From positions 176,542 through 240,541 of the forward strand of contig CAVPRN010000002.1 of the NCBI GenBank assembly GCA_963707935.1: a stretch of DNA of 64,000 nt, given 5' to 3'. Source of the stretch: an uncultured Acidobacteriota bacterium (GTDB lineage Bacteria > Acidobacteriota > Thermoanaerobaculia > UBA5066 > Gp7-AA6). The translations under genes and the position numbers were made by a program. Below, piece by piece: positions 24,042 to 45,050 of this stretch (its first letter is position 1; the number at the start of each line of letters is the position of its first letter). Under the pieces are notes generated by a model. It saw only the letters and a program-made list of their open reading frames with translations. It had not been told where the DNA came from and did not search any database.

Positions 24042-24060
24042 TCGAATCGCGAAACGGTTC

Positions 24061-25203
24061 TCAAGGGCGAGGCCGGCGGCGAAGGAGCTCGTCGGCGTTT
24101 TCGACGTAGATGCGGCGAAGGATCGCCGGCGGCAGATTCATGCCGTAGCCGCGCCACCACTCGGCGTCGGCGGGCCAGAACCACTCGTCCTCGGTCTCGA
24201 GCTGCCGGACGTGCGCCGCGTACATGCCGAACGTCGGGTCGTTGTCCGTCCCGAAGAGGATCCGGCTCGCGTACGCGTCGAAGAAGCGGCGGGCCGAGAA
24301 AGGCTGCCGCGCGAGCTCCCACATGCGCGCCGCAAAGTCGATCTGCACGTTCGGGTGGCGGTCGAGGATCTGCCCGACCTGCCCGAGGTCGTTGGCGAGA
24401 TTGAAGGCGTGCACCGCGACGAAGCGGGTCCCGGGATGCCGCGAAAGCACGCGCTCGAACTTCTCGAGCATCGCGGCGAAGCCCGGGGTCCCCTTGCCGG
24501 AGAGCGACCAGTTGCCGGAGCGGCGCAGCTCGTTCTTCCCGTCGGGCGCGTCGTAGAACGCCGCCGGCTCGGCGATGTGGACGAACACGGGGATTCCGAC
24601 GCGGCCCGCTTCGTCCCACAGCGGATCGAAACGCGGGTCGTCGATGAAGTACGCGCGCTCGCCGACGCGGACGAATCCCTGGCCCTTGTCGGTCAGCTCT
24701 CCCAGCGCGACCGCGCCCGCCGCGACGTCTGCGCGCACCGCCCGCCGCAGGCGCTCGCCGTAGTCGGCCGCCTCGACGCCCTCCTTCTCCATGCCGGCCC
24801 CCATCGCGAAACGGCCCGGATGGGCGCCGGCGTAGCGGGCCGAGATCGCCCGGAATTTCGCTCCCGTCTCGCCGGTCAGGATCAGAGACGTCCGAACGCC
24901 GATTCGGTCCATGAGCGCGACCCATGCGGCGATCTGCTCGGGCGTCTCCGCGTAGGCATGGCTGTGGACGTCGACGACGGGGACGAGGAATCGCTCGATC
25001 TTCGTTCGCGGCACGACCAGCCGGCTCTCCGCCTGCCCCGGCGAGAAGCAGTCGCCGTCGGGAAGGTCCTCCGGTCCGTGTTCCTCGTCGGCGCTCGCGA
25101 TGGCTGCCGCCGGCGCCGGAGTCGGAGCGGGCGGCGCCTGCCGGCCGGCCGCGGCGCCGGCGAGGACCAGAGCGAGGAGAAGCGCCAGGGCCGCGGCTTT
25201 CAT
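24061..25203 (-). CDS. amidohydrolase-2 family metal-dependent hydrolase, secreted
   Basis: Signal peptide MKAAALALLLALVLAGAAAG, HSH motif (VVDVHSHA) and a TIM-barrel hydrolase pattern. ATGA overlap with the upstream PfkB gene. Confidence 0.75.
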   Translation of the reverse strand: MKAAALALLLALVLAGAAAGRQAPPAPTPAPAAAIASADEEHGPEDLPDGDCFSPGQAESRLVVPRTKIERFLVPVVDVHSHAYAETPEQIAAWVALMDRIGVRTSLILTGETGAKFRAISARYAGAHPGRFAMGAGMEKEGVEAADYGERLRRAVRADVAAGAVALGELTDKGQGFVRVGERAYFIDDPRFDPLWDEAGRVGIPVFVHIAEPAAFYDAPDGKNELRRSGNWSLSGKGTPGFAAMLEKFERVLSRHPGTRFVAVHAFNLANDLGQVGQILDRHPNVQIDFAARMWELARQPFSARRFFDAYASRILFGTDNDPTFGMYAAHVRQLETEDEWFWPADAEWWRGYGMNLPPAILRRIYVENADELLRRRPRP

Positions 25204-26113
25204 CCCTGCGCCGCCAGGAGGGCCCGGGCCTCGGCGAGGTCGGCTTGCGTCGCCGTGCCGCCGAGACCGCGGGTCGAAAGGGAGCCGCACGCGACGCCGA
25301 GCCGCAGGCAATCCGCGAGTGCGGCGCCGGAGAGCCAGGCGTGGAGAAAGCCGGCGTCGAACGAATCGCCGGCGCCCGTCGTGTCGGTCACCGCGACCCG
25401 CGGCGCGGGAACGTGGACGAGCCGGCCGTCGTCGTCGATCGCCATCGCCCCCTCGGCGCCGAGCTTCGCGACGATGCGCGCGGAGCCGCGCTGCAGCCAC
25501 CGCACGGCCTCCTCGGGCCGGTCTCGACCCGTCAGCGCGCGGAGCTCCACCTCGTTGGGGAAGAAGACGTCGACGTCGGCGAGCGTCTCGAGGAGGTCCG
25601 GCTCCCATTTCTCGCTCGGGTCGAAGCCCGGGTCGAGCGAGGTCGTGAGATTCGCCGCCCGCGCCTCCCGGAAGAGCTTCCGGACTCCCGGGCGGAGCCC
25701 CGCCTGGAGGTAGTAGGAGGAGACGTGGAGGTGCGCGGCTCCCGGGAAGAGATCCCGCGGGACGTCCTTCTCGGTGAGGGACGCGATCGACCCGAGGAAC
25801 GACACGAGGGCGCGGTCGGTCGGCGACGTGATGGCGACCGTGACCCCCGTCTTCACGGCGGGATCGACGAGCGCGTGCGTCGAGGTCGATGCCCCGCGCG
25901 CGCATGGCGTCGAGGCAGAAGTGCCCGGAGGGGTCGTCGCCGACCTTTGCCGAAGAAGACGACCGGCGTCCCGAGGCGCGCGAGCCCCATGGCGCAGATC
26001 GCCGACGCGCTGCCGAGGACCATCTGGAAGTCGTCGACGAGGACTTCGCGCCCGGGGGACGGGAAGGCGTGGTACCCCTGGCAGATCAGGTCGATGTTGA
26101 TCTCACCGACCAC
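25200..26113 (-). CDS. PfkB-family carbohydrate kinase, with two frameshifts near the N-terminus
   Basis: C-terminal DTTGAGDSF anion hole, N-terminal VVGEINIDL, GGSASAICAMGLARLG. Frames switch at ~25935 and ~25880. GGGAGG Shine-Dalgarno and GTG start. Confidence 0.7.
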
Positions 26114-26134
26114 GAGGACGCGCTTCGGCCTCCC

Positions 26135-27314
26135 CTATTCGTCGGCATGGATCGCGAAGCTCTCGACGACACGGCGGATGACTCCCTCGGAGGGGGAATC
26201 GGGCCGGCCGCCTCCGTGGAGACACCGGAAGAAGGCGAGCAGCTGCCCGGCCACGGCGTCGAGGAGCGCCAGTTCCCCGTCGTCGAAGGGTCGTTCCCCG
26301 CCGTTCACCTCGAGGCGGACGTCCTCGGGCTCCGGGGCGAGCTCCGGCGGGATCCGCTCGCCGACGACGAGACGCCAGCGGCCGAGCCCTTTGCGCCGCA
26401 GCTCGAGGAGGACGTCCCGCTCGTAGGCGCGGACGACGGGGTCGCTCGAAAGGAACGCCACGAGGAGGCTCTCCTCGCCGACCGCCGCCATCGGACCGTG
26501 GCGGAGACCGAGGAACGAATCGGCGATCGTGACCACGCGGCCGCCGTTCGATTCGAGCATCTTCAAGGCCGACTCGTGGGCTGACGCGAGACGGCCGCCG
26601 CTCCCGAGGTAGACGACGGAGGAGTAGGCGCGCCGGGCGAGCGCCGCGAGGTCGTCGGCGCGCTCGAGGAGCAGCGCCCGCGCGGCGGCGGCCAGATCGC
26701 TCCGCGCTCTCGAGGGAGCGCTCGGCCCGCGCGGCCAGCGAGCGGGCGGCGAGAACGAGATTCGTGAAGCTGCTCGTCATGACCAGACTCTGGTCGTTCG
26801 TTTCGGGCGGGAGCACGACCGACTCGATGCGCGGCGTCGAGCCGAAGCGCCGGGTGAGCGCGCCCTCCCGATTGCAGGAGATCAGGAGCTGCTCGGAGCG
26901 CTCGTCCTCGAGAAGACGCTCGACGACGGCGGCGCTCTCGGGGCTGTCCCCGGAGCGGGCGAGCGACACGGCGACGTACCGGCCCGAGGGCGGAAGGGTC
27001 GCGCGCGGATGCGTCAGGAGGAGACCCGCCGGCAGAGCGCGGACCGCGACGCCGAGCGTTTCCTGGAGCGACACGGCCGCGCACTCGCCGGCGAAGCAGG
27101 AGCTGCCGGAGCCGGTCAAAAGGAGCGAGCCCGAACGGTCCCGGATGCCGCCGCCGTGAGCGCCCTCTCGATTCGATCGGCGGCGGCCGCCATCGTTGCT
27201 CGCGGTGCGCGGCCAGGTGAGCGGCTGCTGGCAGATTTCGCGGAGCGTGTGGCCGTATCCGCGCTCGAGCTGTGCCGCCCGGGGAACGTCGAGGAGCGGG
27301 GCGAACGCCGGCAC
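26135..27314 (-). CDS. SIS-domain sugar isomerase/deaminase (AgaS / GlmS-C-like), frameshifted
   Basis: N-terminus ..TLREICQQPLTW.., first SIS domain LLLTGSGSSCFAGE..VAVSLARSGDSPES, C-terminal SIS half in ORF 26135-26566. Frame break ~26600-26700. Start approximate. Confidence 0.6.
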
Positions 27315-27480
27315 GGCCGCGAGGCGAGCGAGCCACGCGTCGATTCGCGCCCGAAGCGTCCCCTTCCATGGCGTCGGCGGTCCGACGCCGGAGGTCGTGA
27401 TCGGCCTCGTTCACCGCTCCTCCGCTCGAGCCGGTTTTCTCGACAATCGCCGGGAGCGAAGTCTAGAATAGGAGGAAAGC

Positions 27481-28325
27481 ATGCACAACTGTACGAAATC
27501 AAACGAAAACTGGCCGGATACCCGGTGAAAGCCGGGGGCGTCCTGCGGCAGCGGCCGCCGCTCTTCCTGGAGGAGCGCCGCTCCCGCATCAGCGATTTCA
27601 TCGAGTCGCACGAGCGCGCCACCGTCCGGGAGCTCGCCACCCATTTCGGGGTTTCGGCGGTGACGATCCGGAGCGACCTCGACGCGCTCGCCCGGGCCGG
27701 GGGCGTCATGCGGTCGCACGGCGGGGCCATGCGCCGGGAAGAGGCCGAGGACATGCCGCTCGGGCTCAAGCAGACGCTCCACCGGGGCGAGAAGGTGCGC
27801 ATCGCACAGGCGGCGGCCCGGATGATCCGCGACGGCGAGACGATCATCCTGGACTCCGGCACGACGACGGCGCGGATCGCCGCCCGGATCGGCGGCCTCA
27901 AGCTGCGCTCGCTCACCGTGATCACCAACGCGCTCAACATCGCCACCGCTCTCGCGCACCTGTCGAACGTCCGCCTGATCATCATCGGCGGGCTGCTCCG
28001 GCAGGTCTCGTCCTCGCTCGTCGGGCCGCAGGCCGAGCAGGTGCTGCGCGGGCTGCATGCCGACCGGCTGTTTCTCGGCGTGGACAGCCTCGATCCCGAG
28101 ATCGGGCTGATGACGCCGGACGTCCTCGAGGCTCAGCTGAATGCCTTGATGATCGACGTGTCGCACGAGGTCATCGCGGTCGCGGACGCCTCGAAGTTCC
28201 GCCGCCGCAGCCTGTCCGTGATCGCCGGCGTCGAGAAGCTCCACAAGCTCATCACCGACAAGTCCGCCAGCCCCGAGGTCGTGGAGGCGCTGCGCGCGCG
28301 GGGCGTCGAGGTCATTCTGGCCTGA
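27481..28325 (+). CDS. DeoR-family transcriptional regulator
   Basis: AGGAGG Shine-Dalgarno + ATG at 27481 is out of frame with the body by one base. A conservative in-frame GTG start lies at 27525. HTH ..VRELATHFGVSAVTIRSDLDAL.. and a C-terminal DeoR sugar-binding domain. Confidence 0.75.
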
Positions 28326-28381
28326 CGGCGTTCCGGAGGACCGGGGCGCCGCGGCCCGGGCCCGTGAGGAGGCCGGTCGCG

Positions 28382-29240
28382 ATGGAAAACTGGCTCGTCT
28401 ATGCCGTCGTCACGACGCTCTTCTGGGGCGTCTGGGGAGCCCTCATCGAGCTCCCCGAGAAGCGCGGGTTCCCGGCGACGCTCGGCTACGTCGTCTGGTC
28501 GCTGACGATGATCCCGTGCGCCCTGGTGGCGCTCTCCCTGGTTGGCTGGAAGCTCGACGCGGACGCGCGCTCGGTGGCGCTCGGCCTCGCCGCCGGGCTC
28601 CTCGGCGCGGGAGGCCAGCTCGCCCTCTTCGAAGTCGCTGCGCATGGGGCCGGCGTATCTCGTCTTCCCGATCGTGTCGCTCTCGCCGGCGGTCAGCGTC
28701 GTCCTGGCGGTGGCGCTGCTCGGCGAATCGACGACTCCGCGCGTCTGGACGGGCATCGTCCTGGCGCTCATCGCCGTGCCGCTCCTCTCCTATCAGCCCC
28801 CGGGCGGCTCCACCGCGACCCGAGGCCGCCTCTGGCTCTGGCTCGCGCTCGCGGTGTGCCTCGCCTGGGGGATCCAGGCCTACGTGCTGCGGTTCGCCAA
28901 CCAGACGATGAAGAGCGAGAGCATCTTCTTCTACATGGCGGCGACCGGGCTTCTCCTCGCGCCCGTGGCGCTGTGGATGACCGACTTCCGGAAGCCGATC
29001 CACTGGGGACCGCGCGGTCCGATGCTCGCCGCGGCCATCCAGTCTCTGAACTCGATCGGCGCGCTGACCATGGTCTACGCGTTTCGCTACGGGAAGGCGA
29101 TCGTCGTCAGCCCGCTCATCAACGCCGTCGCGCCGGCGATCACGGTCCTGCTCTCGCTCCTCCTCTACCGGACCGTTCCCCACCGGATCGTCCTCCTCGG
29201 CATGACGCTCGCGGCGATCGCGTTCTTCCTGATGGCGTGA
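28382..29240 (+). CDS. DMT (EamA-like) superfamily sugar transporter, frameshift ~28645
   Basis: GAGGAGG Shine-Dalgarno. Ten-TM hydrophobic profile. Two ORFs (28364.. and 28542..) join at ..GGQLALFE|ALRMGPAYL... Confidence 0.65.
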
Positions 29241-29249
29241 GAGCAATCG

Positions 29250-30210
29250 GTGCGCGAGCTGACCGTCGGCAAGCTGCGCGGGCTCTCCCAGTGCTCCGAC
29301 CGGCGGGGCACGCTTTCGATGCTCGCCCTCGACCACCGCAACAACCTGCGCAAGATCCTGCGCCCGGAGGCGCCGGCGGAGGTCGGGGACGCCGAGCTCA
29401 CGGCGTTCAAGCGGGAAGCGGTCGAGGCGCTCGCCGAGGCCGCCACGGCCGTGCTCCTCGACCCGGAGTTCGGCGCGGCGCAGTGCATCGCGAGCGGGTC
29501 GCTGCCCGGCGATCGCGGCCTCGTCGTCGCCCTCGAGAAGACGGGGTACGGCGGCGACGCGCACGCCCGGGAGAGCCGGGTCCTCGCGGACTGGGGCGTC
29601 GCCAAGGCCCGGCGCATGGGCGCGAGCGCGGCGAAGCTCCTCGTCTACTACCATCCGGAGGCGTCCACCGCGCGGGCGATCGAAGAGCTCGTGCGCGACG
29701 TCGCCCTCGAGTGCGCGCGCGAGGACCTGCTCCTCGTGCTCGAGCCGCTCGTCTACAACCCCGAGCGCGGCTCCGGGACGCTTTCGCCGGAATCGCGGAA
29801 GCGCGCGATCCTCGAGGCGGCTCGCCGGCTGGCGGGCCCGGGGGTCGACGTCCTCAAGGCGGAGTTCCCGGCCGTCTCGGCGGACGAGGCGGAGTGGCTC
29901 GAGGCGTGTCGGGAGCTCACCGCCGCGAGCGGGGCGCCCTGGATCCTTCTCTCCGCCGCGGCCGACTTCGAGACGTTTCTGCGCCAGACGGACGTCGCCT
30001 GCCGCGCGCGGAGCCTCGGGCGTCGCCGTGGGGCGGGCGGTCTGGAACGAGGCGCCGCGCCTCGCGGGCGAGGAACGCGCCGCCTTCCTGCGCGGCGAAG
30101 CGCGCCGGCGGATGATGGCCGCCTCGCGCTGCTGTTCCGAGCGCGCGCGACCGTGGTCGACGATCTACGGGGCTCCGGAGATCGACGCGCGGTGGTACGA
30201 GCGCTATTGA
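29250..30210 (+). CDS. tagatose-1,6-bisphosphate aldolase, class I (LacD family), frameshift ~30005
   Basis: LSMLALDHRNNLRK, KAEFP and the overall LacD pattern. The C-terminal 60 aa continue in ORF 30028-30210. Confidence 0.7.
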
Positions 30211-30232
30211 CGGCTCGCGGCGCGGGCAGGCG

Positions 30233-31227
30233 ATGAGCGGAAAGGCGCGCGCCGGGGTCCTCTGCGTGACTCCCAACCCCGCGCTCGATCGGACGCTCGA
30301 GGTTCCGAATCTCCGGCCGGGTGCCGTGATGCGAGCGACGTCGGAGCGCGTCGCGGCCGGCGGGAAGGGCGTCAACGTGGCCCGGGCTCTCAAAGCGCTC
30401 GGGGCCGAGGCCCGTTGCATGGGACCGCTCGGAGGGGCGAACGGGCGGATCCTCGCCGACCTTGCCGCCGCCGAGGGCCTCGAGTCCGCCTGGACCTGGT
30501 GCGAGATCGAGACGCGGAGCTGCCTGATCCTCGTCGACCCCGCGGCGCGCGAGGCCACGGTGATCAACGAAGTGGGGCCGCGGCTCTCCGCCGAGGACTG
30601 GAAGCGCGTCTGCTCCGACGTCCTCGGCGAGGCGGCTCGCGCGGCGGCCGTGTGCTTCAGCGGCAGCCTGCCGCCCGGCGTCCCCCCCGAGGGGCTGGCC
30701 GATCTCTGCCGGTCTCTCGTCGAGTCGGGGCACGCGCCCTGGGTGGATTCGAGCGGTGCCGGCTCTCGTGGCGCTCCTCTCCGTCGCCGGGCCTGCGGCT
30801 GAAGATCAACCGCGAAGAGGCGCAGGAGGCGTTGCGGCCTCCCTCTCGAGCGGCGTCGCCGCGTGCGGGACGGCCGCGCGGCGGCTCCGCGGAGCGCGGG
30901 ATGGCGACCGTCGTGCTGACCCTCGGCGACGAGGGCGCCGTGCTCGCGGCGGCCGAAGGGTGCTGGCACGCGGCGGCGCCGCCCGTCGAGACCGCCAGCG
31001 CCGTCGCGAGCGGCGATTCGTCTCCTCGCCGGGCTCGTGGCGGCGCTCGCCTCCGGGTCGCGACCTGCCCGAAGCACTCTCCTGGGGGGTCGCCGCCGGC
31101 GCCGCCAACGCCCTGGCCGGACGGCGGAGCGCGCTTCTCGCGCGAACAGTTCGAGTCCGGCCCTCGCGCGAGTCGAGCGACGGGCGGTTCCGTAGCGCGC
31201 AGCGCCCGCACCCGGAGCGTGGGCTAA
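30233..31227 (+). CDS. PfkB-family 1-phosphofructokinase / tagatose-6-phosphate kinase (FruK/LacC-like), multiply frameshifted
   Basis: N-terminus VLCVTPNPALDRTLEV, GGKGVNVARALKALG, C-terminal ..GDEGAVL.. and ..ALSWGVAAGAANALA split over three frames. 3' end approximate. Confidence 0.6.
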
Positions 31228-32099
31228 TCGACGACCCGCAGTTCTTCGCTGTTCCCGCCGCCGGCCTTGATCGCGTACATCAGCTCGTCGGCCAGTCGAA
31301 CCATCCTCTCTGGAGAGTCCGGAGCCTTCCGGAATGCGACAGCACCGAAGACATGGTCAGGTTCCAGTCCTCCTGCAGACGGGCCGAGTTCAGGAGCAGA
31401 AGAAGCTTCCGGATCGCGGCCGATGCCTCCTCCGGGCCGGTCTCCGGAAACGCCGACGCAGAACTCGTCGCCGCCCAGGCGCGCGAAGATGTCGGTGGCC
31501 CGAAGGCTCCCCCGCACGGTCGCAGCGATGAGCGCCAGCAGGCGATCTCCTTCCTCGTGTCCCCTTTGGTCGTTGACCCCCTTGAAGCCGTCGAGATCGA
31601 GGTACGCGATCGTCAAGGGACGGCCATGCCGCGCCGCTCTCTTGATCTCAACCGCCGTGAGCTCGAAGAACGCCCGTGCGTTTTGCGATCCCGGTGAGCG
31701 GATCCGTACGGGCCAGACTCTGCTCGCGGGAATGCGCCGTCACGAAGGGACGACAGCAGCCAGCCGAAGACGAGAAAGACGCCGAGCAGCAGCAGGCTGT
31801 TCCAGTAGAGGATCGAGTCCGTCGAGAACGTATGCCCGGATTCCCGCGCGGTCGAAGTCATCCCAGGGCGCTGGCGACCGAGATCGCAACGCCGCTCCAC
31901 CGCCGAGAAGCCAGGAAGCGAACGAAATCGGGACGAGAAACAGGAAGGAGAGGCGAAGCTGCCATCCGGTCCGATCGCCGGCGAAGGATATGGCGCCGAC
32001 CATCGCGAACGCGAGGGCGAAGAGAAGGGGCCCGGGGATCACGCTTCGAGAGTCGCGCCGCGCCTTCATTTTCTCACTGACAGAATAACGCTCGGTCAA
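31224..32099 (-). CDS. diguanylate cyclase (GGDEF) with an N-terminal membrane domain, multiply frameshifted
   Basis: C-terminal frame has DPLTGIANR../YLDLDGFKGVNDQRGHEEGD...RLGGDEF. N-terminal TM segments sit in two other frames. Confidence 0.6.
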
Positions 32100-32148
32100 C
32101 CGAGACCGGGTAGCCCTCGATACTCACTTGTGTTTCAATCGCTCCGGC

Positions 32149-34420
32149 CATGGGTCGTCCGTTCCGGTTCCTCGTCGCTCTGATCCTCGGACTCGCTCTG
32201 CTGACGTGGGCGGCCTCCGTCATCGTCAACGAGACCACACGCGGCTGGTTCGAGAAGGACATGAACCTGCGAGCGCGGCTCGTCGTGAGCGGTGCGCGCA
32301 GGCCCTGATCTCGCACTGGCACAAGGAACAGCGGGCCGACCTGCGGGACCTGCTCATCGAAATCTCCCACGATGAGCGCATCATGGCGGCCGCGGCGTGC
32401 GCGTCGGATCTGACGCTCCTCAGCCGGACCGAAGACTACCCCGAGCACTTCACGTGCGCGGAGCTCGGAAAGCACGTTCGCGGCGCCGGCGGGAGCACGC
32501 GGGCGACTGGCTCTCCTGGAAGAGCATCCTCTCGCTGCCGGGCGGCGAGGCGCACGTGAGCGCGATTCCGGTGCTCGACGGCGGTCGCCTCTCGGATTCG
32601 TGGTGCTCGTGCACGATCTGAGCTTCGTCGAACGGCGAGAGGCGAAGACGCGGCAGTTTCTCCTGCTGGCGTTCGGATTTCTCGCGGTGGCGGCCTCCGC
32701 GGTGACGATCATCGCAGCTCGGCTCTCGTGGCGCGGATGGAGCAAGGACCTGCGGCGGTTCCTTCGGGGGGGCGCGGACCGCCCCGAGTTTCGGCCCATC
32801 CTGCGGGATGTCCGAGAGCTCGTCGATCGCATCGTCGCGGAGAAGGAGGCCGATCGCGAGGGAGGCGACTGGACGCCGCAGCGTCTCAAGCAAACGCTGA
32901 ACCGGTACCTGCACGGCGAGAGAGCGGTGATCGTGCGCGAATCGGGAACCCTACATCCACGAGCGAGATCAGGACGGCCGTCTCGCGCTCTTGCACCCGG
33001 CGAGCGGCCTGGTGACCGCGCTCGAGCCGGTGATGCGGGCCTGCTCAGGCGTCTGGATCGCCCACGGGAGCGGCTCGGAGATCGGGCGACAGCGGATCGC
33101 GAGGGACCGGATTGCGCGTGCCCCCTGGGGAAGAGTCGTACGTCCTGCGGCGGGTCTGGCTCTCCTCCGAGGAAGAGAAGGGCTACTACTACGGCTTCTC
33201 GAACGAGGGTCTCTGGCCGCTTTGCCACGTCGCCCACACGCGGCCGGTCTTCCGAAGGGAGGACTGGAAACAGTACCAGGCGGTGAACGAGAAGTTCGCC
33301 GAAGCTCGTCTGTAAGGAGGTCGACTCGGAAGATCCGATCGTCCTCGTGCAGGATTACCACTTGGCCCTCGCGCCGCGGCTGATTCGCGAGCGGCTGCCG
33401 CGGGCGACGGTCATCATGTTCTGGCACATCCCCTGGCCCAACTGCGGAGCAGTTCGGAATCTGCCCCTGGCGCGAGGAACTGCTCGACGGGATGCTCGGC
33501 GCGAGCATTCTGGGATTCCACACGCAGTCCCACTGCAACAACTTCGTGGATTCAGTGGATCGAACGCTCGAAGCTCGCATCGACCGCGAGCAGAACGCGG
33601 TCGTTCAGCACAGGGCGGAGCACGCTCGTACGCGCCCTATCCGATCTCGCTCGAGTGGCCGGTGCGGTGGCTCAAGACGGCTCCGCCCCCGGACGAATGC
33701 CGGGCCAGTGTGCTTCCGCGAGCTCGGACTGCCGTCGAACGCGCTTCTCGGCATCGGAGTGGACCGCCTCGACTACACCAAGGGCATCGAGGAGCGTCTC
33801 CTCTCCGTGGAGCGCCTGCTCGAGCGAATCGCCCGAGTTTCGCGGCCGATTCACGTTCGTCCAGCTGGCGGCGCCCAGCCGACGGCCATCCAGCGCTACC
33901 GGGAGCTCAACGAGAGGGTCGAGCGGGTCGCTGCGCGCAGTCAACGAGCGCTTCGGCGCGGACGGCTACCGTCCGATCGTGCTGCTGCCGGGCGCACCAC
34001 GAACCGCCGACCGTGTTTCGGCTACTACCGTGCCGCCGACCTCTGCTATGTGAGCAGCCTTCACGACGGGATGAACCTCGTGGCCAAGGAGTTCGTGGCG
34101 CTCGCGGGACGACGAGCGGGGTGTGCTGGTCCTGAGCCAGGTTCACGGGCGCGGCGCGGGAGCTGACCGAGGCGCTCATCGTCAATCCGTACGACCTGGA
34201 TCGAGGCGAGCGCGGCCCTCGCGGTCGCTCTCAAGATGTCCCCGGACGAGCAGCGCGACAGGATGCGGGCCATGCGGGCGTTCCTCGCGGAATTCAACGT
34301 CTACCGCTGGGCGGGCCGGATGCTCGTGGATGCGGCACGTCTGCGACGGCGCGACCGCCTCACGGGGCGTTTGATGGACCACCCGGCCGCGGTGGTGGCC
34401 GCCAGGGCGCTGAAAGAACG
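32149..34420 (+). CDS. otsA: trehalose-6-phosphate synthase (OtsA, GT20) fused to a ~260 aa N-terminal membrane and sensor-like extension, multiply frameshifted
   Basis: N-terminal TM1 (FLVALILGLALLTW), a Cys-containing periplasmic-like segment and TM2 (FLLLAFGFLAVAASAV). Then GT20 motifs VIVANREPY, YYYGFSNEGLWPLCH, YHLALAP, YVSSLHDGMNLVAKEF spread over all three frames. 3' end approximate. Confidence 0.6.
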
Positions 34421-34474
34421 GGACTTGCCGCCGACTTCCGGCCCTCCGTGCTATCCTTCGCCCCCTCTTCCGGT

Positions 34475-34551
34475 GGGGCTGTAGCTCAGTTTGGGAGAGC
34501 GCCTGAATGGCATTCAGGAGGTCGCCAGTTCGATCCTGGTCAGCTCCACCA
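34475..34551 (+). tRNA. tRNA-Ala (anticodon GGC), CCA encoded
   Basis: Cloverleaf: acceptor GGGGCTG/CAGCTCC with the G3:U70 Ala identity pair, anticodon loop aTGGCAt, T-arm GTTCGATCC, 3' CCA. Confidence 0.9.
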
Positions 34552-34697
34552 ATGCCCCACGACGCTTCAAGACCCGGCACAAACAACTGCCGCGATCGGA
34601 CTGGATCGAGCCGGCGACCTCCGTGAGGGGCACGGGGGGCGCCACGCGCCCCCCGCCTGAGACGTTCGACGGAATCGTCACCCGAGCGAAGCGAGGC

Positions 34698-34727
34698 GTG
34701 ACGGTTCGATCCCGTTCAGCTCCACCA
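34698..34727 (+). repeat. duplicated tRNA 3' end (T-arm + acceptor + CCA), att-like fragment
   Basis: ggttcgatcccgttcagctccacca matches the tRNA-Ala 3' end (gttcgatcctggtcagctccacca), about 150 bp downstream. No complete tRNA folds here. Confidence 0.7.
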
Positions 34728-34820
34728 AGCACGTCGCTCCGCTCGATCGTGGACCTTCGCCGGCCGGTCTTCAGATAGCTCTGGCTTCGGATTGCTCACA
34801 TGTTCCGGCCGGCGAGCTGG

Positions 34821-34847
34821 CGCGAAGCCTGGTCGCGTTGCGAGCGC
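34821..34847 (-). repeat. inverted partial copy of the structured repeat element (outer stem only)
   Basis: gcgcgaagcctggtcgcgttgcgagcg is the reverse complement of the ..cgctcgcaacgcgaccaggtttcgcg.. arm of copies B and C. Confidence 0.5.
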
Positions 34848-35003
34848 GACGAAAGACCGAGGCGTCGCTCGAACTGACCGCGGTAAGCCTGTTTCGCGCA
34901 CCGCGCGCAATCTCCGCGAGGGCGGCGGAGAAAGTCCGCGCGCCGCGGACGAATTGACTTCAGGCCGGCAAGCGCGACACCTGGATCTTCGCGTCGGCGC
35001 GCG

Positions 35004-36158
35004 TCAGAAGACAGGGATAGAAGGCTCGCGGCGCAGAAAGACCCTCCCGGCCTCCTCCCAGACAAACGGCGCGACGGTAAAATGGTGGAGAACGGCCTCG
35101 GCATCGCGCGCGTGGCGCTGTATCGAAGAGGAGGAGAAAATGGCGCTGCCCCCGGCAAGGACGTTGGCGGTTCGCGCGACCCGCGCTCCCGTCTCCGAAG
35201 CCTGACTCGCGGCGACGCGTCCCCGGGCGAGCTGCCGGAGCGTCGGAGCCGTTCCCGCGCGCACCGTCTGCCACATCTCCTCGACCGTCTCGTGGAGGAA
35301 CGCGCGGGCGCCGCCCAGCTCTGCCTCGGCCCGCGCCACTCCGATCTGGGCGGCCGGCCGGTCGGCGAGGGGTTGCGCGTAGAGCGTCGGGGCCTTCGTC
35401 TGCGCGAGGTCGGAGAAGCTCGTCGAGAGCCGCGCGGGCGATGCCGAGACTCACGGCCGCGACCTGGTCGACGAAGAATCCGAGGGGTGGCATCTGATAC
35501 AGAGGCTCGCGGCGGTGCCCCGAGGGATCGAGCAGCGCAAAGATCCGTTCCTCGGGCACGAAGACGTCATCCGCGCTGAAGTCGTTGCTTCCCGTGCCGC
35601 GCAGCCCGCTCACGTGCCACGTGTCGTGGATCACGACGCTCGAGACCGGCATGCAGACGTGGATGATCTCCGGACCGTACGCCGTCATCCTGGGTTGGCC
35701 GTTCTCGATGACGAGACAGCCGGCCCAGACCCAGTCGGAATGCGTGATGCCGCTCGCGAACGCCCACCGGCCGCTCACGCGCACGCCTCCTTCCACGCGG
35801 ACCGCCGCCCCGAGGGCGCCGCGATTCCGGCGGCCGGCGCCATCGGATCCGCGAAGACCTCCTTCGCGCCCCGCTCGGGCATGTACCCCGCTGCGACGTT
35901 GCTGCCGGTCGCGATCATCGTGCACCAGCCTGTCGAACCGTCGGCGGCCGCGACCGATTCGATCGCACGCAGAACGTCGAGGGGCTCGGCCTCACGGCCG
36001 CCGAGAAAGCGGGGCACCGTGAGCGAGAAGACGCCGGTCTGGCGCAGCTCCTCGGCGAGGTCGCGGGGCAGGCGACGCGCTTTTTCGATCTCGGCGCGGC
36101 GTGTGCGGATCGCGGGAAGAAGATTGTCGATGGCCGTCAAAACGCTGGTCGTATCCAT
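35004..36158 (-). CDS. acyl-CoA dehydrogenase-like flavoprotein (type-2 ACAD / SfnB-DszC-like), multiply frameshifted
   Basis: GGAGGA Shine-Dalgarno + ATG. N-terminus MDTTSVLTAIDNLLP..., middle ..WAFASGITHSDWVW.., C-terminus ..LAGGSAIFSSSSIQRHARDAEAVLHH.. in three frames. Confidence 0.55.
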
Positions 36159-36374
36159 GGATCCTCCGAGTCGAATGTCGAGACCCCCACATTCTAGACA
36201 TCGGCCTCGGTCCGAAGGAACCCGGCCCGCAGAGTCGGGGCCCTCGACTCCTCTCCTGGGCAAGTCGCAGCGGGAATCCGGAATGGCACTCCGATGTCGA
36301 CGGTGCGATCCCGTACGGCTCCATCAGGAGGTTGCGCGTTCCCGCGGCGCGCCGAGCGCCTCCTCCGCCGCGAC

Positions 36375-38287
36375 CTAGCGCTCGCCGCCGAAATCCTCCT
36401 CGGGCGACTGGCGCTGCTCGTCGAGCACGCGGTTGATGTTGACGGCGGCGGAAATGAGACCCAGGTGGGTGAACGCCTGGGGGAAGTTCCCGAGCGACTC
36501 GCCCGTCAGGCCGATCTCTTCGGAGTAGAGGCCGAGATGATTGGCGTAGCCGAGCATCTTCTCGAAGGTGAGACGCGCCGCGTCGAGCCGTCCCGACCCG
36601 GGCGAGAACCTCCGCCAGCCAGAACGTACACATGGAGAAGGTTCCCTCCTCCTCCTCGCTGATGCCGTCGGGTGAGACCCGCGGATCGTAGCGCCGGACG
36701 AGGTTGTCGCTCTCGAGATTCCCCTGGATCGCCTGGAGGGTGCCGAGCATGCGGGGATCGGAGGGAGAGATGAACTTGACCATCGGAGCCAGCAGCATGG
36801 ACGCGTCCAGCACGTCGCTGTCCAGGCTCTGGACGAAGGAGTTCCTGGAACGGGAGAAGCCCCGCTCCATGATCGTCTCGTAGATCGCGTCTCGCGTGGC
36901 GAGCCATCGGTCGCGGTCCCCCGGCAGGCTCTCTCTTCATGGAGAGGCGAAATGCGCGATCCAGCGCCACCCAGCACATCATCTTGGAGAACGTGAAGTC
37001 CTGACGCCCTCCGCGCACCTCCCAGATACCTTCGTCCTTCTCGCTTCCAATGGTCGCAAACCCAGCCGGCGATGCCGCGCACGAGGTTCCAGAGGCGATG
37101 GGACAGGGGCTCGCAGTACTTGGCATAGAGATAGAGGGCATCGAGCAGATCACCCGCGACGTCGAGCTGGAACTGCCTGGCCGCGTCGTTCCCGATTCGG
37201 ACAGGGCGAGAGCCTCGGTAGCCCTCCAGGTGAGCGAAGCTGGATCTCCGAAATCTCCCGGCGTCCGTCGATCCCGTAGAGGACGCCGCAAGCCTTCCTC
37301 GATATGGCAATGCTCCGCCAGGAAAGAGATGAACTGGACCGCCTCCTCCGTGATACCCCACCCGCAGGAACGCGTAGACGGTGAACGCGGCGTCGCGAAT
37401 CCACGTGTACCGGTAGTCCCAGTTGCGATAACCGCCGACGCGCTCGGGGAGACTGCAGGTGGCCGCCGCCACGATGGCGCCCGTAGGCCGGAACGTCAGC
37501 AGTTTCAACGTCAGCGCGGATCTCTTGACCATCTCCCGCCAGCGGCCCTGGTACCGGCTTCGGATGATCCAGTTCTGCCAGAAACGCAGAGTGCGCCGGA
37601 ACTCGCTCTGGCAGATTTCCTCGAGCTTCTCCAGTGGAGGAGGCGGCTCCTCGTCGGCCTGCGCGAGAACGACCGGAATCTGGTCGCCTTCGCGAAGAAG
37701 GAACTCCGCGACGACGGCGCCCCCGTCGATCCGGGCCTCCAGCGGCGTGACGAGATTGACCGCGAGATCGCCCGCCGAGAAGCTGAAAGCCGAATTCGGT
37801 TCTCCGAATCCGGCTCTCCTGGCGTCCGTAGTCGAAGGCCGGCCGGCATTCGAGGCGGAAGGGGATCTCGCCACGCACGCCGCGGACCATCCGGACCACC
37901 TGATGGTCGGCTCGACGTTTCGGTCCGCCGCCGGCGTGGATGGGCATGAAATCGACGACTTCTCCGACGCCGTCCGGCGTCAGAAAGCCGCGTCATCAGG
38001 ACATTCGAGTCCGGAAGGTACATCTGCCGGCGGCCCGCTTCTTCCGAGACCGCGGCGATTCGGAAGTGGCCGCCGCGGCGGTCATCCAGAATCGAAGCGA
38101 AGAGACTCCCCGAATCGAAATAGGGAAGGCAAAGCCAATCGATCGTTCCGTCCGTACCGACCAGCGCACAGGTGTGCAGGTCGCCGATGATCCCGTGACT
38201 CTCGATCGGCAGGTAGCTCAAGGCTCTTTCGTCGTCGTTTCGAGAAGCCGGGCAAGGGCCGGCACCGGGCGCCTCCCCTCGCGGCAT
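36375..38287 (-). CDS. glycoside hydrolase family 15 (glucoamylase/trehalase-like), multiply frameshifted
   Basis: N-terminal domain [39 protein letters not shown]-terminal ..[17 protein letters not shown]. At least four frame switches. Confidence 0.65.
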
Positions 38288-38532
38288 TCCGCGGCCGGCG
38301 CCGACAGACCGCACAAAAACTCCTCGAGGCATCGGTTTCGAGCGGCTCCTCTGCCAGATGCGCGGCCGCAGCCTCGGCTCCTCTGGAGAGAGTAGCATGG
38401 CGCCTTCCCCGACCGGCGAGGCCGGGTCCCCCCGCACAATATCGGATTCCTGTGCATCCGGAATCGCATGCCGTCGCGCCGCCGGTTCGGTCGGGCGCCG
38501 GCTCGGCCGCGCTTTTCGAGCTCGTTGCAGCG

Positions 38533-39120
38533 TCAGGCGAGCGCTATGAACGCCTTCGGATCGCTCCACTGCCCGCGCTCATAGAGGAACCGAACCGCCT
38601 TGTCCACGACGATCTGGCCGTCGTCGGGGGAGATCGCGATCTCGGCGCGCTCGAGCGGCCGGGGCGTCGGGCCCTCGAAGTTGATGCCCGAAATGTAGTA
38701 GCCCGACCCGTGGCAGGGGCACTTGAACTTGTTTTGCGCAGGGAGCCAGTTGGGCGTGCAGCCGAGATGCGTGCAGACGGCGATCAGCGCGTAGATCGAG
38801 TCGGTGTTACGCACGATCCAGACGCCGAACTTCTCCTTCCATCGCTCGTCCACGCCCATGCCGTAGCTCGACGGGTCGCCGGCTTTGAAGCGCGTCGGCG
38901 GCTCGAAGAGGACATTGGGGAAAAGGAAGCGGACCGTCGCGGCCAGCCCGGCGGCCGTGGCCGCGGCGAAGGCGATCCAGGCCAGGACCATCCACTTCAG
39001 AGCCGAGCGGCGGTCCATCGCGTCGGTCCGAGGGTCGGCCGTCCCGAGCACCCCCTCGGGAGAGGGCTCTGTCGGGCTCGAGCCGGTAGGCGTTTTCGGA
39101 ATCTCCGGGACGGCGCTCAC
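38533..39120 (-). CDS. Rieske [2Fe-2S] protein, copy 1 (orphan)
   Basis: TAT-like DRRSALKWM, CTHLGC...CPCHGS cluster boxes. About 85% identical at protein and DNA level to the Rieske gene at 51867-52466. Confidence 0.8.
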   Translation of the reverse strand: MSAVPEIPKTPTGSSPTEPSPEGVLGTADPRTDAMDRRSALKWMVLAWIAFAAATAAGLAATVRFLFPNVLFEPPTRFKAGDPSSYGMGVDERWKEKFGVWIVRNTDSIYALIAVCTHLGCTPNWLPAQNKFKCPCHGSGYYISGINFEGPTPRPLERAEIAISPDDGQIVVDKAVRFLYERGQWSDPKAFIALA

Positions 39121-39329
39121 GATCTTCTTCCGGAGATCTCAACGCAGTTTCGGCTCGTCGGATTTCGCACGGATCGTCCCTCGGCCCGCAAGGCTTCGAG
39201 ACGAGCGGAAATCCCCCTTCCGCCGGTCCGCGCGGGAACCGCCGCCTGGGAGTCCGCGGCCGACGGTTCCTGGCCGCCGCGAGGCCGCCGTTCTGAAATA
39301 TATATCGTAATCCGATATGTTTCTCCAGA

Positions 39330-39644
39330 ATGGCGAAGGAGGAGCTCATGGCGAGGTTGAAGGTCCTTCCGACCGCATTGGCGGCCGGCTTCACCTGGGG
39401 GATCGGGGTCCTGCTTCTCGGCAGGGTCTCGGGTGGAGGGTGGGGAGCGCGGTTGGTCGAGGTACTCTCGAGCGTCTATCTCGGTTATGCCTCGACTTTT
39501 CTGGGCGGGCTGATCGGTGGGCTCTGGGCGTTCGCGGACGGGTTCCTCGCGGGCCTCGTGCTGGCGTTCTTCTACAATGCCTTCGCCGGCCCGCGCTCCG
39601 AACCGGTCAGCATTCTGAAACGGACCGAGCAGCCGGCGCACTGA
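39330..39644 (+). CDS. small hypothetical membrane protein
   Basis: AAGGAGGAG Shine-Dalgarno. AT-rich promoter-like stretch (tgaaatatatatcgtaat) upstream. 104 aa with 3 TM helices. Confidence 0.4.
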   Translation: MAKEELMARLKVLPTALAAGFTWGIGVLLLGRVSGGGWGARLVEVLSSVYLGYASTFLGGLIGGLWAFADGFLAGLVLAFFYNAFAGPRSEPVSILKRTEQPAH

Positions 39645-40098
39645 GCCGGACGTCGCGCGGGCCGCGCCGGCCGGAGGCGCGGGTGCAGGTGTGTCATCGG
39701 AGCGCCGTCGATCTGGTTCGCGACCGCCGGGGCGCGACGTCCGGAAAACTCCGATCGGATAGCGGGAGCTGGATTGAGCCGGAGTGATTCCGGCACGCCG
39801 TGCCGCTTTTCCGAGAATCAGATGAAGCGCGGCAGGGCGCAGCGAAATTCGGAAAGCCGAAGAAACCACTGCAGTACCGCCCTTCTGCACCGAGTCGTCG
39901 GAGATTCGCTGGCAGGAGAATCGGCGGGCGCACCTCCTCGTAACCGTCAGGTAGGATTCGAGGCTACGCTCCCGGAGCCGAGTCGGGCCGATCCCGGACG
40001 AATCGCTGACGAGCGCGACCCCGCGGTCGGACCGGGCGCTCGCCAGGAGGAGGGCGTCTGACGGGGCGCCGTCGGCCACTTTCGAGCTCGAAGGGACG

Positions 40099-40918
40099 AT
40101 GCGACTTCTGAATCCCGACTTCGATCCCGCCCGCTTTTCGGAACGGGTCCGAATCGCGCCGCATTGCGCGCTGCTACTCGACTACGACGGCACGCTCGCC
40201 CCTTTCGCGCCGGATCGGAGTCACGCGATCCCGTACCCGGGAGTGCGCGAGGCGCTTCGAGCGATCGCGGGCGACGGCCGCACGCGGCTGGGCATCGTCA
40301 GCGGCCGGCCGGCCGAGGATCTGGCGCGGCTGACGGCGCTCCCGGCCGGCGTGGAGCTGTGGGGTTCCCACGGGCTCGAGCACGTGCCGGAAGAGGGCGA
40401 AGCGCTCACCAATCTTGCTGGGGAAGTCCGGCATGCGCTCGAAGAGGCCGAAGAGTGGCTGTCGCGAAACGGCTGGGACTCCCTGCTCGAGAAAGCCGTA
40501 CGGCCTCGCCCTGCACGGCAGGGGTCGTCCGGAGCTGTTCGCGGCTGCAGCTCCCCTCTTTCTCGAACGCTTCTCGGATCCGCTGCGCCGCGCGGGTCTG
40601 GAGATTCGTTCGTTCGACGGCGGGGTGGAAGTCCGGCGCGAGGGGATTCACAAGGGGCTCGCCGTCGAGCGGGTGCTGGCGGAAATGGGTCCCGGCACGC
40701 CGGTGGCCTATCTGGGCGACGACGAGACGGACGAGGACGCTTTCATGGCGATTCGGGGGAGGGGTCTGGCGGTCCTCGTGCGGCCGGAAGAACGCCCGAC
40801 CGGGGCGGATCTATCCCTGCGCCCTCCCGAAGAGCTGCTCGATTTTCTCGCACGTTGGGCGGATCCGGAAGGAGGCGTCCCGCTGCTTGCCGGTGTTTTG
40901 AGCGGATCCCCCTCGTGA
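40099..40918 (+). CDS. otsB: trehalose-6-phosphate phosphatase (OtsB, HAD family), frameshift ~40500
   Basis: HAD motif I LLLDYDGTLAP. C-terminal half (..GIHKGLAV..YLGDDETDEDAF..) in ORF 40415-40918. Confidence 0.7.
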
Positions 40919-40978
40919 AAGGATATGGACCCGTCCGTCCAGGCGGCTGCAGAAAGTCCGTAGAACGGCCGCCAAAGC

Positions 40979-41007
40979 TTGACATGGATCAATTAGTTCG
41001 ATATAGA
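40979..41007 (+). promoter_or_regulatory. sigma-70-type promoter (TTGACA-N17-TATAGA) for the MarR-like regulator
   Basis: Near-consensus -35/-10 with 17-nt spacing in an AT-rich island. ATG lies ~10 nt downstream, giving a near-leaderless transcript. Confidence 0.5.
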
Positions 41008-42015: not shown

Positions 42016-42178
42016 CCGCTCGCAACGCGACCAGGTTTCGCGACCTAAGGAGCGAAACGACTCGCGTTGCGGGAGCCGGAGCGCAGCAAGGGAATCGGCG
42101 AGCGGTCGAGCCCCTTTGGGCGAGCCGCTCGCCGGTGCGCCCCGCAGGGCGCAGATTCCCGAGCAAGCGAAGGCGACG
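42016..42178 (+). repeat. structured intergenic repeat element, copy B (full length)
   Basis: Nested hairpins: cgctcgcaacgcgacc...ggtttcgcg-N-cgaaacg...tcgcgttgcgggagc, then gagcccctttgggcgagc and ggtgcgcc ccgcag ggcgcag palindromes. Confidence 0.8.
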
Positions 42179-42179
42179 G

Positions 42180-42596: not shown

Positions 42597-42855
42597 ATCT
42601 CTCCCCCTCCATGGAACGTTCGCCCGACAAAATTTGTCCGGAATGCCAACGAAACGCTGCCCGAACTTGACGCCGCTGCCGCCTTGCCCGGTCTCAAATC
42701 CTTGAGCCGCAACGATCGAGCGATCTCGACGAAGATGGTACGGCTCTTGATACTACACGACGTCAATTGAGAGTGCCGGCATGGGAGTTCCGGCAACGGG
42801 GGAAGCCGAAAGGCTTCCCCCGTTGTCTTTGTGGGCCGGTCTTCGGAAGCCCGCT

Positions 42856-44131
42856 TCACCTTCCCGCGGCCGCGGCCGCGACTCCGGCCGGCTCGTCGAT
42901 CCGATAGCGCTCGAGCGGGCCGAGCCGTTTCCTCTCTCCCGCCACCGTCAGGAGAAGCGAGTCGCCCCGGTCCTCCTCGGCGAGGATCCGAAATCCGGCG
43001 CGCGCGGCGGCGATGGCGCGGCCGTCGCCATACGGGATGCGGAGCCGCAGGCGTTCGCGCTCCGGCCGGATCCGCGAAGCGATCATCTGCTCGAGCTCCG
43101 CCACGCCGGCGCCCGTCTTCGCGGACACGCGCGCCGCGGAGGACGGCCCGAGCGCGCCCGGCAGGTCCCGCTTGTTCCAGACCGGCAGGATCCGCTCCTC
43201 CCCGACGGCGAGCTCGGCGAGGACCTCGGAGGAGACTTGCCGCTCCTCGTCGACCCGCGGCGGAGGAGGCGTCGAGCACGTGCAGGACGAGGTCCGCGTC
43301 GCGGATCTCGGCCAGCGTCGAGCGGAACGAGGCGACGAGGCCGGGCGGGAGCTTGCGCACGAAGCCGACCGTGTCGAGGAAGACGACGCCGCGGAGCTTG
43401 GGCGAAGCCGCCCGCGCCGCGCGCGAGTCGAGGGTCGCGAAGAGCCGGTCGGCGGCGTACTCCGACGCCCGCGTCAGCCGGTTGAAGAGCGTCGTCTTGC
43501 CGGCGTTCGTGTAGCCGGCGATCGCGACCTGGAAGAATTCTCTGCCGGCCGCGGCGGCGCACGTCGCGCGCCGTCTCGATCTTCGCGAGATCGCGGCGCA
43601 GCCGCGCGATCCGGTCGCGGATCCGGCGCCGGTCGAGCTCGAGCTTCTGCTCGCCCGCGCCGCCCCTCGCCCCGATTCCGCCGCGGAGTCCCGAGAGGCG
43701 ATCGTAGCGCCCGGCCAGGCGCGGCAGCAGGTACTGGAGCTGCGCGAGCTCGACCTGCGTTCGCGCCTCGCGCGTGCGGGCGTGCGAGGCGAAGACGTCG
43801 AGGATCAGGCCCGGGCGGTCGAGCACGCGCACGCCGTCCCAGGCGCGCTCGAGGTTGCGCGTCTGCGCGGGCGTCAGCTCCTCGTCGAAGACGACGAGCT
43901 TCGCGCCGTGCTCCTCGGCCGCGGCGCCGACCTCTTCGACCGATCCCTTCCCGATGAACGTGGCCGGATCCGGAGCCGCCCGCTCCTTGACGAAGCGCGC
44001 GACTTCGACGCCGCCCGCCGTGTCGAGCGAGCCGCTCGAGCTCGTCCAGGTGCTCCTCGGCCGCGGCGCGCGGCATCGACTCGGTTGGCGATCCCGACCA
44101 GGATCGCCTTTTCTCTCGGGGCCCGATTCAC
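42856..44131 (-). CDS. hflX: GTPase HflX, multiply frameshifted
   Basis: N-terminal HflX domain (..ERAILVGI.., ..LILDVFASHARTREARTQVELAQLQYLLPRL..). G-domain G1 IAGYTNAGKTTLFN, G3 DTVGFV, G4 NKRD, spread over three or more frames. Confidence 0.7.
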
Positions 44132-44159
44132 GACACCGCAATGATGGCAGAATTCGGGC

Positions 44160-45050
44160 GTGAATCGTTCGGAGCGCGAACGCCTCCTCGGGTCTCGGCT
44201 CGAGCTCCTCTACCGGACTTACGGGCCCGAAACGGCCGGGAGCGACCCGATCGGTCTTCTCTCGCGGTACCGCGCGCCGGAGGACATCGAGGTCGCCGGC
44301 TGGATCGCGTCGGCTTTCGCCTACGGGCGGGTCGAGACGATCCGGGCGAACGTGTCGGCGCCTCCTCGACGCGCTCGGCCCCTCGCCGGCGCGCGACGCT
44401 CGACCGAGTCGCGGACTTTCGCGCGCTTCGCGCGCGAGCGCCTCGCCGGCTTCCGGCACCGGTTCCACGGCGCGGAAGACGCCGCGGCGCTCCTCTTCGC
44501 GATCCGGAGGCGCGCGGCACGAGCGCCGGGTCGCTGCGCGCGCACTTCGAGTCGGAGTTCCGCCCCGAGGAAGGGGACGTCTCGGGCCTCCTCTCCCGCG
44601 TGTCGCAGGGGCTGCTGCGCCTCGACTACCGTCCCGCCCTCGGCCGGCGCCGCCTTCCGGACGAATCCCCGCGTTCGATTCTTCTTCCCCGACCCGGCGT
44701 CCGGCTCCGCCTGCAAGCGCTGGCACCTCTATCTGCGCTGGATGGTGCGTCGGGATCGGCTCGACTTCGGCCTCTGGACGGGGATCCCGACGGACCGGCT
44801 CCTGATCCCGACGGACACGCACATCCACCTCGTCTCGCGCCGGCTCGGCCTCACCCGGCGGCGGACCCCCGACGGGGCGGCGGCCCGGGAGATCACGGCG
44901 CGCCTCGCGCGATTCGACCCGCGCGACCCGGTCAAGTACGACTACGCCCTCTGCCGCATCGGCATCTTCGGAATCTGCAAACCGAAGTTGCGGCAGTCCC
45001 GCTGCCACGAGTGCCTGGCGGCGGAGGCCTGTCCGGCGGGAAGAGGGAGA
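44160..45050 (+). CDS. TIGR02757/DUF2400-like conserved hypothetical protein, multiply frameshifted
   Basis: Segments ..LLSRYRAPEDIEVAGWIASAFAYGRVE.., ..LRLDYRPALG.., ..DTHIHLVSRRLGL..DPVKYDYALCRIG.. in three frames. Family assignment tentative. Confidence 0.4.

Follow-up and report, generated by a model that had tools for sequence, protein, structure and literature searches.

Does a 64,000-nt stretch of an uncultured Acidobacteriota genome (contig CAVPRN010000002.1 of assembly GCA_963707935.1, positions 176,542 to 240,541; hereafter "the window") harbor a set of genuinely broken genes, or were its genes broken only in the course of sequencing and assembly? The question is raised by dense clusters of frameshifts in this DNA (~70% G+C), the closest relatives of which are metagenome-assembled genomes (MAGs) of Acidobacteriota/Thermoanaerobaculia. 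The worst affected part is a locus of trehalose genes and their neighbors around a tRNA-Ala gene. With a probability of about nine in ten, the frameshifts represent consensus errors of a long-read-type metagenome assembly and not pseudogenes. This interpretation, favored already in the initial annotation made from the sequence alone, is adopted because of the single-base spectrum of the lesions, the lack of other signs of decay, the onset of the densest zone in the middle of a gene, a hit in the tRNA, a patch of the same kind in a sister assembly, and the provenance of the contig, whose nearest relatives are assemblies of the long-read type.

Several open reading frames (ORFs) of the window are recorded letter for letter in NCBI and ENA as products of one 465,887-bp contig. 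The truncated ORF at 30233-30802 (189 aa) is the same as the gene call P0213 of the source, including its out-of-frame tail; therefore, the frameshifts are those of the public record and did not arise afterwards.

Frameshifts were counted with a protein-to-DNA aligner permitting frameshifts, against orthologues from public assemblies. Pfam was run on the frame translations with stop codons masked as X. A codon-model detector, which is reference-free, has a sensitivity of ~60% in dense stretches and, at high penalties, labels them as non-coding. Two relatives were of particular use: L084, with ~91% DNA identity to the window and many proteins 93-99% identical, and L083 (ENA ERZ25039502, contig_66759), with 89.7% DNA identity over 20.1-31.15 kb of the window. 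L084 is syntenic with the window on both flanks of the densest zone and served as the orthologue reference there. Of the other assemblies, L001 is a Microflora Danica (MFD) MAG and L002 is a MEGAHIT contig. For the trehalose-6-phosphate synthase OtsA, a search of 5.8 billion proteins returned no same-species relative, the best match being 83% identical.

In the frame plot of third-codon-position GC, one frame stands out clearly (at least 0.9) for the greater part of the window; at ~30.75-38.4 kb, the signal is blurred, the frame switching every few hundred bases. As the initial annotation had it, the domains are intact and scattered over frames. Thus, Pfam finds GT20/OtsA spread over three plus-strand frames (hidden Markov model positions 72-133, 134-185 and 174-470), PfkB split over two frames and GH15/TREH_N over three minus-strand frames, with ACAD and GGDEF also split.

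Altogether, at least 69 frameshifts in the window are supported by homology (~75 with the calls made only by the codon model), so that the dense frameshifting first described is real, and the minimum of 35 given for it covered about half of the events. Extra bases account for 57 of the 69 (+1, ~83%) and missing bases for the other 12 (-1, 17%); none is longer. The events gather in two zones, agreeing with the two stretches singled out earlier as the worst (30.7-38.3 and 42.8-45.0 kb). Zone A (30,758-37,989) holds 43 frameshifts (PfkB2 9, GGDEF 6, OtsA 18, ACAD 2, GH15 8), as compared with ~7.3 expected under an even spread (Poisson P ~4e-20); in an earlier count for this zone alone, 34 were +1 vs. 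9 of -1 (binomial P = 1.7e-4). Zone B (42,835-44,669) holds 11 (HflX 6, DUF2400 5), and ~15-20 further frameshifts are scattered outside both zones. Expressed as density, this amounts to ~6/kb in zones A and B, ~1.6/kb at 22.5-30.0 kb and ~0.2/kb in the remaining window. A sub-stretch of zone A, 31.2-33.1 kb, is deletion-rich, and its flanks are insertion-rich. In the alignment against L084, the melibiase, amidohydrolase, DeoR, MarR, SnoaL and AhpC genes contained no frameshifts.

The codon-model detector made 36 frameshift-class calls in the window. Under identical settings, the calls per ~21 kb of the control assemblies were 0 for L002 and L082, 1 for L081 and L001, 3 for L084 and 24 for L083.

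The genes of the two zones, together with the trehalose-phosphatase-like gene lying between them, are as follows (frameshift positions are approximate).

30233 to 31189, plus strand: PfkB2 ("LacC"), a kinase of the 1-phosphofructokinase family; 9 frameshifts, all +1, at 30758, 30789, 30835, 30848, 30888, 31021, 31055, 31119 and 31159, placed against L083, L084, P0165 and P0403 and by DNA gaps vs. L083.

31180 to 32081, minus strand: membrane GGDEF diguanylate cyclase; +1 at 31454, 31683 and 31741 and -1 at 31347, 31859 and 31897, possibly with another at 31225, from Pfam and comparison with P0283-P0287; the number is 5-7 depending on the reference, 6 being obtained with three of the five, and there are no in-frame stops.

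32150 to 34412, plus strand: OtsA (GT20), a membrane-anchored trehalose-6-phosphate synthase of 750 aa; 18-20 frameshifts by Pfam and orthologue alignment; against P0001, 4 of them are -1 (32298, 32498, 32584 and 33881) and 14 are +1 (32936, 33114, 33307, 33443, 33609, 33634, 33713, 33831, 33939, 33988, 34022, 34101, 34141 and 34202), the +1 at 33114 being fitted equally well by two -1 events (33079 and 33108).

34475 to 34551, plus strand: tRNA-Ala(GGC), 77 nt, structure intact (Rfam, 60.8 bits).

34850 to 36050, minus strand: flavoprotein of the acyl-CoA-dehydrogenase type 2, Rv3094c-like (ACAD); 2 frameshifts, at 35418 (+1) and 35827 (-1 or +2), by Pfam and the codon model; the structure PDB 7f70 is matched by three consecutive stretches alternating between two frames.

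36420 to 38221, minus strand: GH15 trehalase-like glucoamylase, the right edge of zone A; 8 frameshifts, all +1, at 36597, 36937, 37040, 37236, 37285, 37352, 37782 and 37987, by Pfam and against L001.

40081 to 40900, plus strand: OtsB, trehalose-phosphatase-like; 1 frameshift, +1 at 40465, by the codon model and by alignment to distant references (33-38% identity).

42766 to 44131, minus strand: GTPase HflX; 6 frameshifts, +1 at 42835, 43261, 43544, 44028 and 44080 and -1 at 43052, against the intact 455-aa orthologue of L084 (82% identity); the E. coli HflX structure is matched across three frames.

44160 to 45071, plus strand: DUF2400/TIGR02757 protein; 5 frameshifts, +1 at 44355, 44392, 44426 and 44669 and -1 at 44524, with the Pfam model split over fragments and by orthologue alignment.

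Apart from the frameshifts themselves, these genes look like functional ones. No in-frame stops were found in the corrected frames of the aligned genes, and indels longer than 1 bp, large deletions and insertion sequence (IS) elements were absent among the lesions of the window; the same absence of premature stops, large deletions and IS elements had been stated at the outset, and it holds for the corrected genes. Comparison with orthologous loci, named in the initial annotation as a check, yields end-to-end alignments of the corrected genes with intact orthologues: 750 of 750 residues for OtsA (83.5% identity to P0001), 597 of 598 for GH15 (82% identity to L001) and 316 of 316 for PfkB2 (81% identity). 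Of the 219 columns that are near-invariant across 120 homologues, corrected OtsA retains 216. The three missed columns are situated 1-11 residues from a junction, two of them in the stretch where either one +1 or two -1 events can be placed, and intact OtsA homologues themselves miss 0-3 columns in a leave-one-out comparison. PfkB2 keeps all of its 45 invariant columns, and in its riddled C-terminal half, the similarity to homologues matches that of the homologues to one another. The third-position G+C of the corrected frames is normal (0.83-0.87).

Substitutions were compared three ways between the window, L083 and L084. Those private to the window and those private to L084 stand at 10:35 within the dense part of PfkB2 and at 20:109 over the preceding 2.75 kb, so that a window-specific excess is not clearly apparent. 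We also considered that the dense zone might contain substitution errors or be under relaxed selection; neither idea is supported by the residue retention or the substitution ratios, and both were dropped.

The lesions ignore gene boundaries and gene function. Zone A sets in within PfkB2, where 175 clean codons are followed, from codon 176, by 9 insertions within 400 bp. Metabolic, signaling and core (HflX) genes are all affected. The tRNA-Ala gene has the D-loop CAGTTTGGG (77 nt) vs. CAG-CTGGG in the 76-nt orthologue from L084; judging from this alignment, the extra D-loop base is probably one more inserted base, in this case in a non-coding gene.

An independent assembly suffers from the same ailment. 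L083 carries 18 private frameshifts, including 15 of the +1 type, within 3.3 kb (3837-7109) encompassing the amidohydrolase, PfkB1 and SIS genes, where the window ORFs are open and of full length; the gene calls of L083 are fragmented there. The gene call for PfkB2 in L084 (11148-11353) is a fragment of 187 aa, and two +1 events are probable there. The same class of errors is present in an independent assembly at different positions, and it is near-absent (0-1 calls) from L002, L082, L081 and L001. Insertion-dominated lesions, with no substitutions to accompany them, thus occur in different genes of two related organisms, as would be expected of an assembly-quality problem and not of a real mutational process.

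The following course of events would account for these observations. Noisy long reads would have been assembled without effective polishing, and base-calling and consensus errors would have become fixed in the public contig; where few reads supported the consensus locally, single spurious bases may have survived. By analogy with the nearest relatives, which are ENA MAG assemblies with Flye-style "contig_N" names, the platform was probably Nanopore and the assembler Flye. The long-read MAGs of MFD come from Nanopore data alone, with Flye --meta as the assembler and a single round of Medaka polishing; for those of low coverage, the authors note drops in coding density tied to errors (PMC12313526). 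Nanopore bins with less than ~40-fold coverage were reported to need polishing, their indels leading to frameshifts in gene calling (PMC9262707), and the same gene-fragmenting errors have been described elsewhere (PMC12007338). Overall, the organism most likely possesses intact genes for 1-phosphofructokinase, the GGDEF cyclase, OtsA, the ACAD-like flavoprotein, the GH15 trehalase, HflX, DUF2400 and others.

The nature of the inserted bases complicates this picture. The lesion had been described as a single additional G or C, frequently within a short homopolymer. The one extra base stands (83% of the events), but its identity and context do so only in part: among the 21 events resolved at the DNA level against L083, an identical base adjoins the insertion in only 6, vs. 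about half for a random base by a rough, uncomputed estimate, and the inserted base is A or T in 9 of the 13 events of the 22-30 kb stretch. In PfkB2, G or C was inserted in all 8 resolved events. The events resolved at the protein level are mostly singletons. Errors linked to homopolymers were rejected on these grounds. A homopolymer link is not required for low-depth consensus noise, but its absence leaves the platform without a clear signature.

As to the context of the same 21 insertions (window 22491-31117), nine are directly 5' of a CG dinucleotide. At 23479 and 26696, the inserted A gives rise to GATC (CAG[A]TCGC). Such surroundings might reflect a bias in base calling related to sequence context or methylation.

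Four points speak against consensus error as the whole answer. The insertion bias and the mostly non-homopolymer sites are unlike the classical homopolymer-deletion signature of Nanopore consensus sequences (PMC9262707). Low read depth as the cause of the patchiness is something we infer. PfkB2 is 86% identical to P0403 in the corrected C-terminal half and 95% in the clean half, and the homologues follow the same C-terminal trend among themselves. Finally, zone A overlaps a locus truly different between close relatives, where a biological contribution is conceivable.

This locus merits description. Synteny with L083 and L084 breaks at 31,154-31,185 and resumes with L084 at 40,979 (MarR). Between PfkB2 and MarR, the window (31186-40983, 9.8 kb) contains GGDEF, OtsA, tRNA-Ala, ACAD, GH15, a Rieske gene, an unknown gene and OtsB; the corresponding segment of L084 (11938-16303, 4.3 kb) contains an integrase, an HTH protein, a 271-aa protein, TauE and a tRNA-Ala in the opposite orientation, and L083 has other genes from 10951 onward. 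The order OtsA...GH15...OtsB of the window also departs from that of L081 and L082, in which the cluster reads GH15(-) OtsA(+) OtsB(+). The 3' end of the tRNA-Ala is copied directly 150 bp downstream (34704-34727, extending to 34696-34737), and this copy is 100% identical over 38 nt (34700-34737) to that of L084. In L084, a ~52-nt copy of the 3' half of the tRNA lies beside a phage-type integrase, and the repeat (12110-12169) and the tRNA-Ala (16033-16108) bound an integrated element of ~3.9 kb. In the window, the att-like repeats enclose only ~150 bp (34552-34703), with no integrase between them. Taken together, the tRNA-Ala repeats mark an att site or integration hot spot, which in the window is nearly empty.

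The left edge of zone A lies 430 bp ahead of the synteny break, and its right edge falls 3 kb short of the point where synteny resumes. Since zone A is not bounded by the tRNA repeats and reaches into PfkB2, it is not the same thing as the island. A strain-specific low-coverage island as an account of the dense zone is only partly tenable: its boundaries mismatch the synteny breaks, and zone B is in conserved synteny. An inversion of 31.2-34.7 kb between inverted repeats was also considered; no such repeats were found.

An intergenic REP/MITE-like repeat of ~100-160 bp occurs in the window at 22370-22470, 34821-34852, 42017-42179 and 45814-45971 and in L084 at 11934-12017. The copies are 84-96% alike and are both direct and inverted; one is a 101-bp insertion relative to L083, and another is situated just after PfkB2 of L084.

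The nearest relative of the window changes at ~28.0 kb. To the left of this point, L083 groups with L084 to the exclusion of the window; to the right, the window groups with L084. The switch suggests that either related strains have recombined into a mosaic or the consensus of one of the assemblies is chimeric.

The variable locus lends some substance to another kind of artefact, in which co-occurring strains were collapsed, or a segment of a minority strain was joined in, and the polisher had few or conflicting reads to work with. Such an origin would fit the synteny break from 31,154-31,185 to 40,979 (with the integrase element of L084 in its place), the mosaic suggested by the switch at ~28 kb, the trehalose gene order differing from that in L081 and L082, and the deletion-rich stretch at 31.2-33.1 kb between insertion-rich flanks. 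However, the edges of zone A do not coincide with those of synteny, 38.0-41.0 kb having only one frameshift; the errors of zone B and of 22.5-30 kb lie in conserved synteny; and collapsed haplotypes would give an excess of substitutions, none of which is seen specifically in the window. As the explanation of the frameshifts, it appears rather unlikely. Still, strain heterogeneity at a variable locus may have left fewer effective reads in support of zone A, without explaining everything.

True pseudogenisation would make zone A a decaying island by the tRNA-Ala, with the trehalose genes and their neighbors inactivated by real frameshifts, a possibility already raised in the initial annotation. 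The indels are indeed present in the deposited sequence, the locus varies between relatives and has the att-like partial copy of the tRNA-Ala, and its GC is slightly lower (0.65-0.68 vs. ~0.71). Hence, the variable tRNA-linked locus under zone A is genuine, but nothing there shows decay. Pseudogenes of bacteria are expected to display a deletion bias, varied indel sizes and many substitutions. Here, in contrast, not one nonsense codon, indel of more than 1 bp or IS element accompanies the 43 frameshifts; the corrected genes retain as many invariant residues as intact homologues do; third-position GC in the corrected frames is normal at 0.83-0.87; and 83% of the events are +1. Decay of an island also fits poorly with a dense zone beginning mid-gene, with damage to HflX and other core genes in conserved synteny, and with a sister assembly having the same lesions at different places. 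It is therefore regarded as highly improbable.

Slightly less credible still is that the extra bases are real and stem from a very recent localized burst of single-base insertions (an "indel shower") over ~7 kb at the tRNA-Ala-linked locus plus a ~2-kb stretch; if true, the burst would have disabled the trehalose genes, HflX and others, leaving no time for substitutions to accumulate. Programmed recoding, with ribosomal frameshifting, transcriptional slippage or deletion-type RNA editing rescuing expression, is favored only by the absence of stop codons in the corrected frames and can be practically dismissed, given up to 20 sites per gene with no common slippery motif or homopolymer, events of both +1 and -1 type, and sites that are conserved in none of the orthologues, all 120 OtsA homologues listed being single ORFs of 721-756 aa; moreover, we know of no bacterial system correcting dozens of random single-base insertions.

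Consensus error would also cover the frameshifts scattered over the rest of the window. All isolated sites given in the initial annotation (8310, 20058, 23497, 23978, 25880, 25935, 28645 and 30005) were recovered within a few bases. Pfam on either side of several isolated frameshifts placed the second fragment mostly outside the domain; these frameshifts were later confirmed by the L084 orthologues. The affected genes are listed below.

20047 to 30009, no strand assigned: sugar-utilisation operon with scattered frameshifts, seen against intact L084 orthologues and as window-only single-base insertions at the DNA level; its members follow.

TBDR: +1 at 20047.

519-aa protein: +1 at 22491, 23479 and 23978.

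PfkB1: +1 at 25881 and 25948, -1 at 26126.

SIS: +1 at 26696, 27200 and 27345, -1 at 27156.

EamA: +1 at 28637.

LacD: +1 at 30009.

57030 to 58062, plus strand: gene of the histone-deacetylase family (HDAC); +1 at about 57264, with Pfam positions 1-53 and 68-298 in different frames.

453, 8331 (S10 peptidase), 50911 and 51072 (cytochrome b) and 61223: probable frameshifts called by the codon model only.

Further calls of the codon model, at 46829, 47161 and 49215, are uncertain, and Pfam support for the sites called by this model only is partial or absent. The apparent 1877-aa ORF at 16712-22342 is a read-through fusing TBDR with the next gene (melibiase/GH36-like, 20339-22342): TBDR truly ends (...RLYF*) at 20262, in the frame into which the +1 at 20047 leads, and the original frame is open by chance.

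The window also contains two paralogous genes of the Rieske iron-sulfur subunit, at 38533-39120, beside the GH15 gene, and at 51867-52412, in the cytochrome b operon (49.9-52.5 kb); the sources name both as of the cytochrome b6-f / bc1 type. The probable frameshift pair 50911 and 51072 falls in the same operon.

The significance of these observations pertains mainly to quality control, since truncated and chimeric proteins from this contig are already in public protein collections, e.g., P0213 (189 aa), which stands for a kinase of 316 aa, and the 1877-aa TBDR fusion ORF. An automated metabolic reconstruction of this MAG would wrongly conclude that HflX, 1-phosphofructokinase and both the synthesis and the degradation of trehalose had been lost. 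Consensus errors of long-read MAGs can cluster (~6/kb over 2-7 kb) within an otherwise good 466-kb contig, and errors that are clustered, insertion-biased and not tied to homopolymers can escape both genome-wide averages and checks limited to homopolymers.

Among known systems, the window resembles tRNA-linked integrative islands in its tRNA-Ala with a 24-38-nt copy of the 3' end 150 bp on, the same repeat flanking the element of L084. It differs from them in having no integrase and no island between the repeats, and in that the frameshifted genes are conserved chromosomal ones on both sides of the tRNA. With true pseudogenes, such as those generally known from Mycobacterium leprae and recent host-restricted symbionts, it shares many neighboring frameshifted genes; unlike these, it exhibits no nonsense codons, larger deletions, IS elements or loss of conserved residues, and its bias is towards insertion and not deletion. 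Residual-indel fragmentation of long-read-only (Nanopore, PacBio CLR) assemblies and MAGs, as revealed by the IDEEL test, is alike in that conserved genes are split into adjacent ORFs. In the literature on it, the density of errors depends on coverage and the truncated proteins enter databases; the truncated ORFs of the window are likewise public. The frameshifts themselves yield no new biology and are an instance of this familiar fragmentation problem. That literature stresses homopolymers, whereas the window displays mostly non-homopolymer extra bases heavily concentrated within stretches of 2-7 kb; it is this tight clustering, the bias towards insertion and the lack of a homopolymer link that are less often described.

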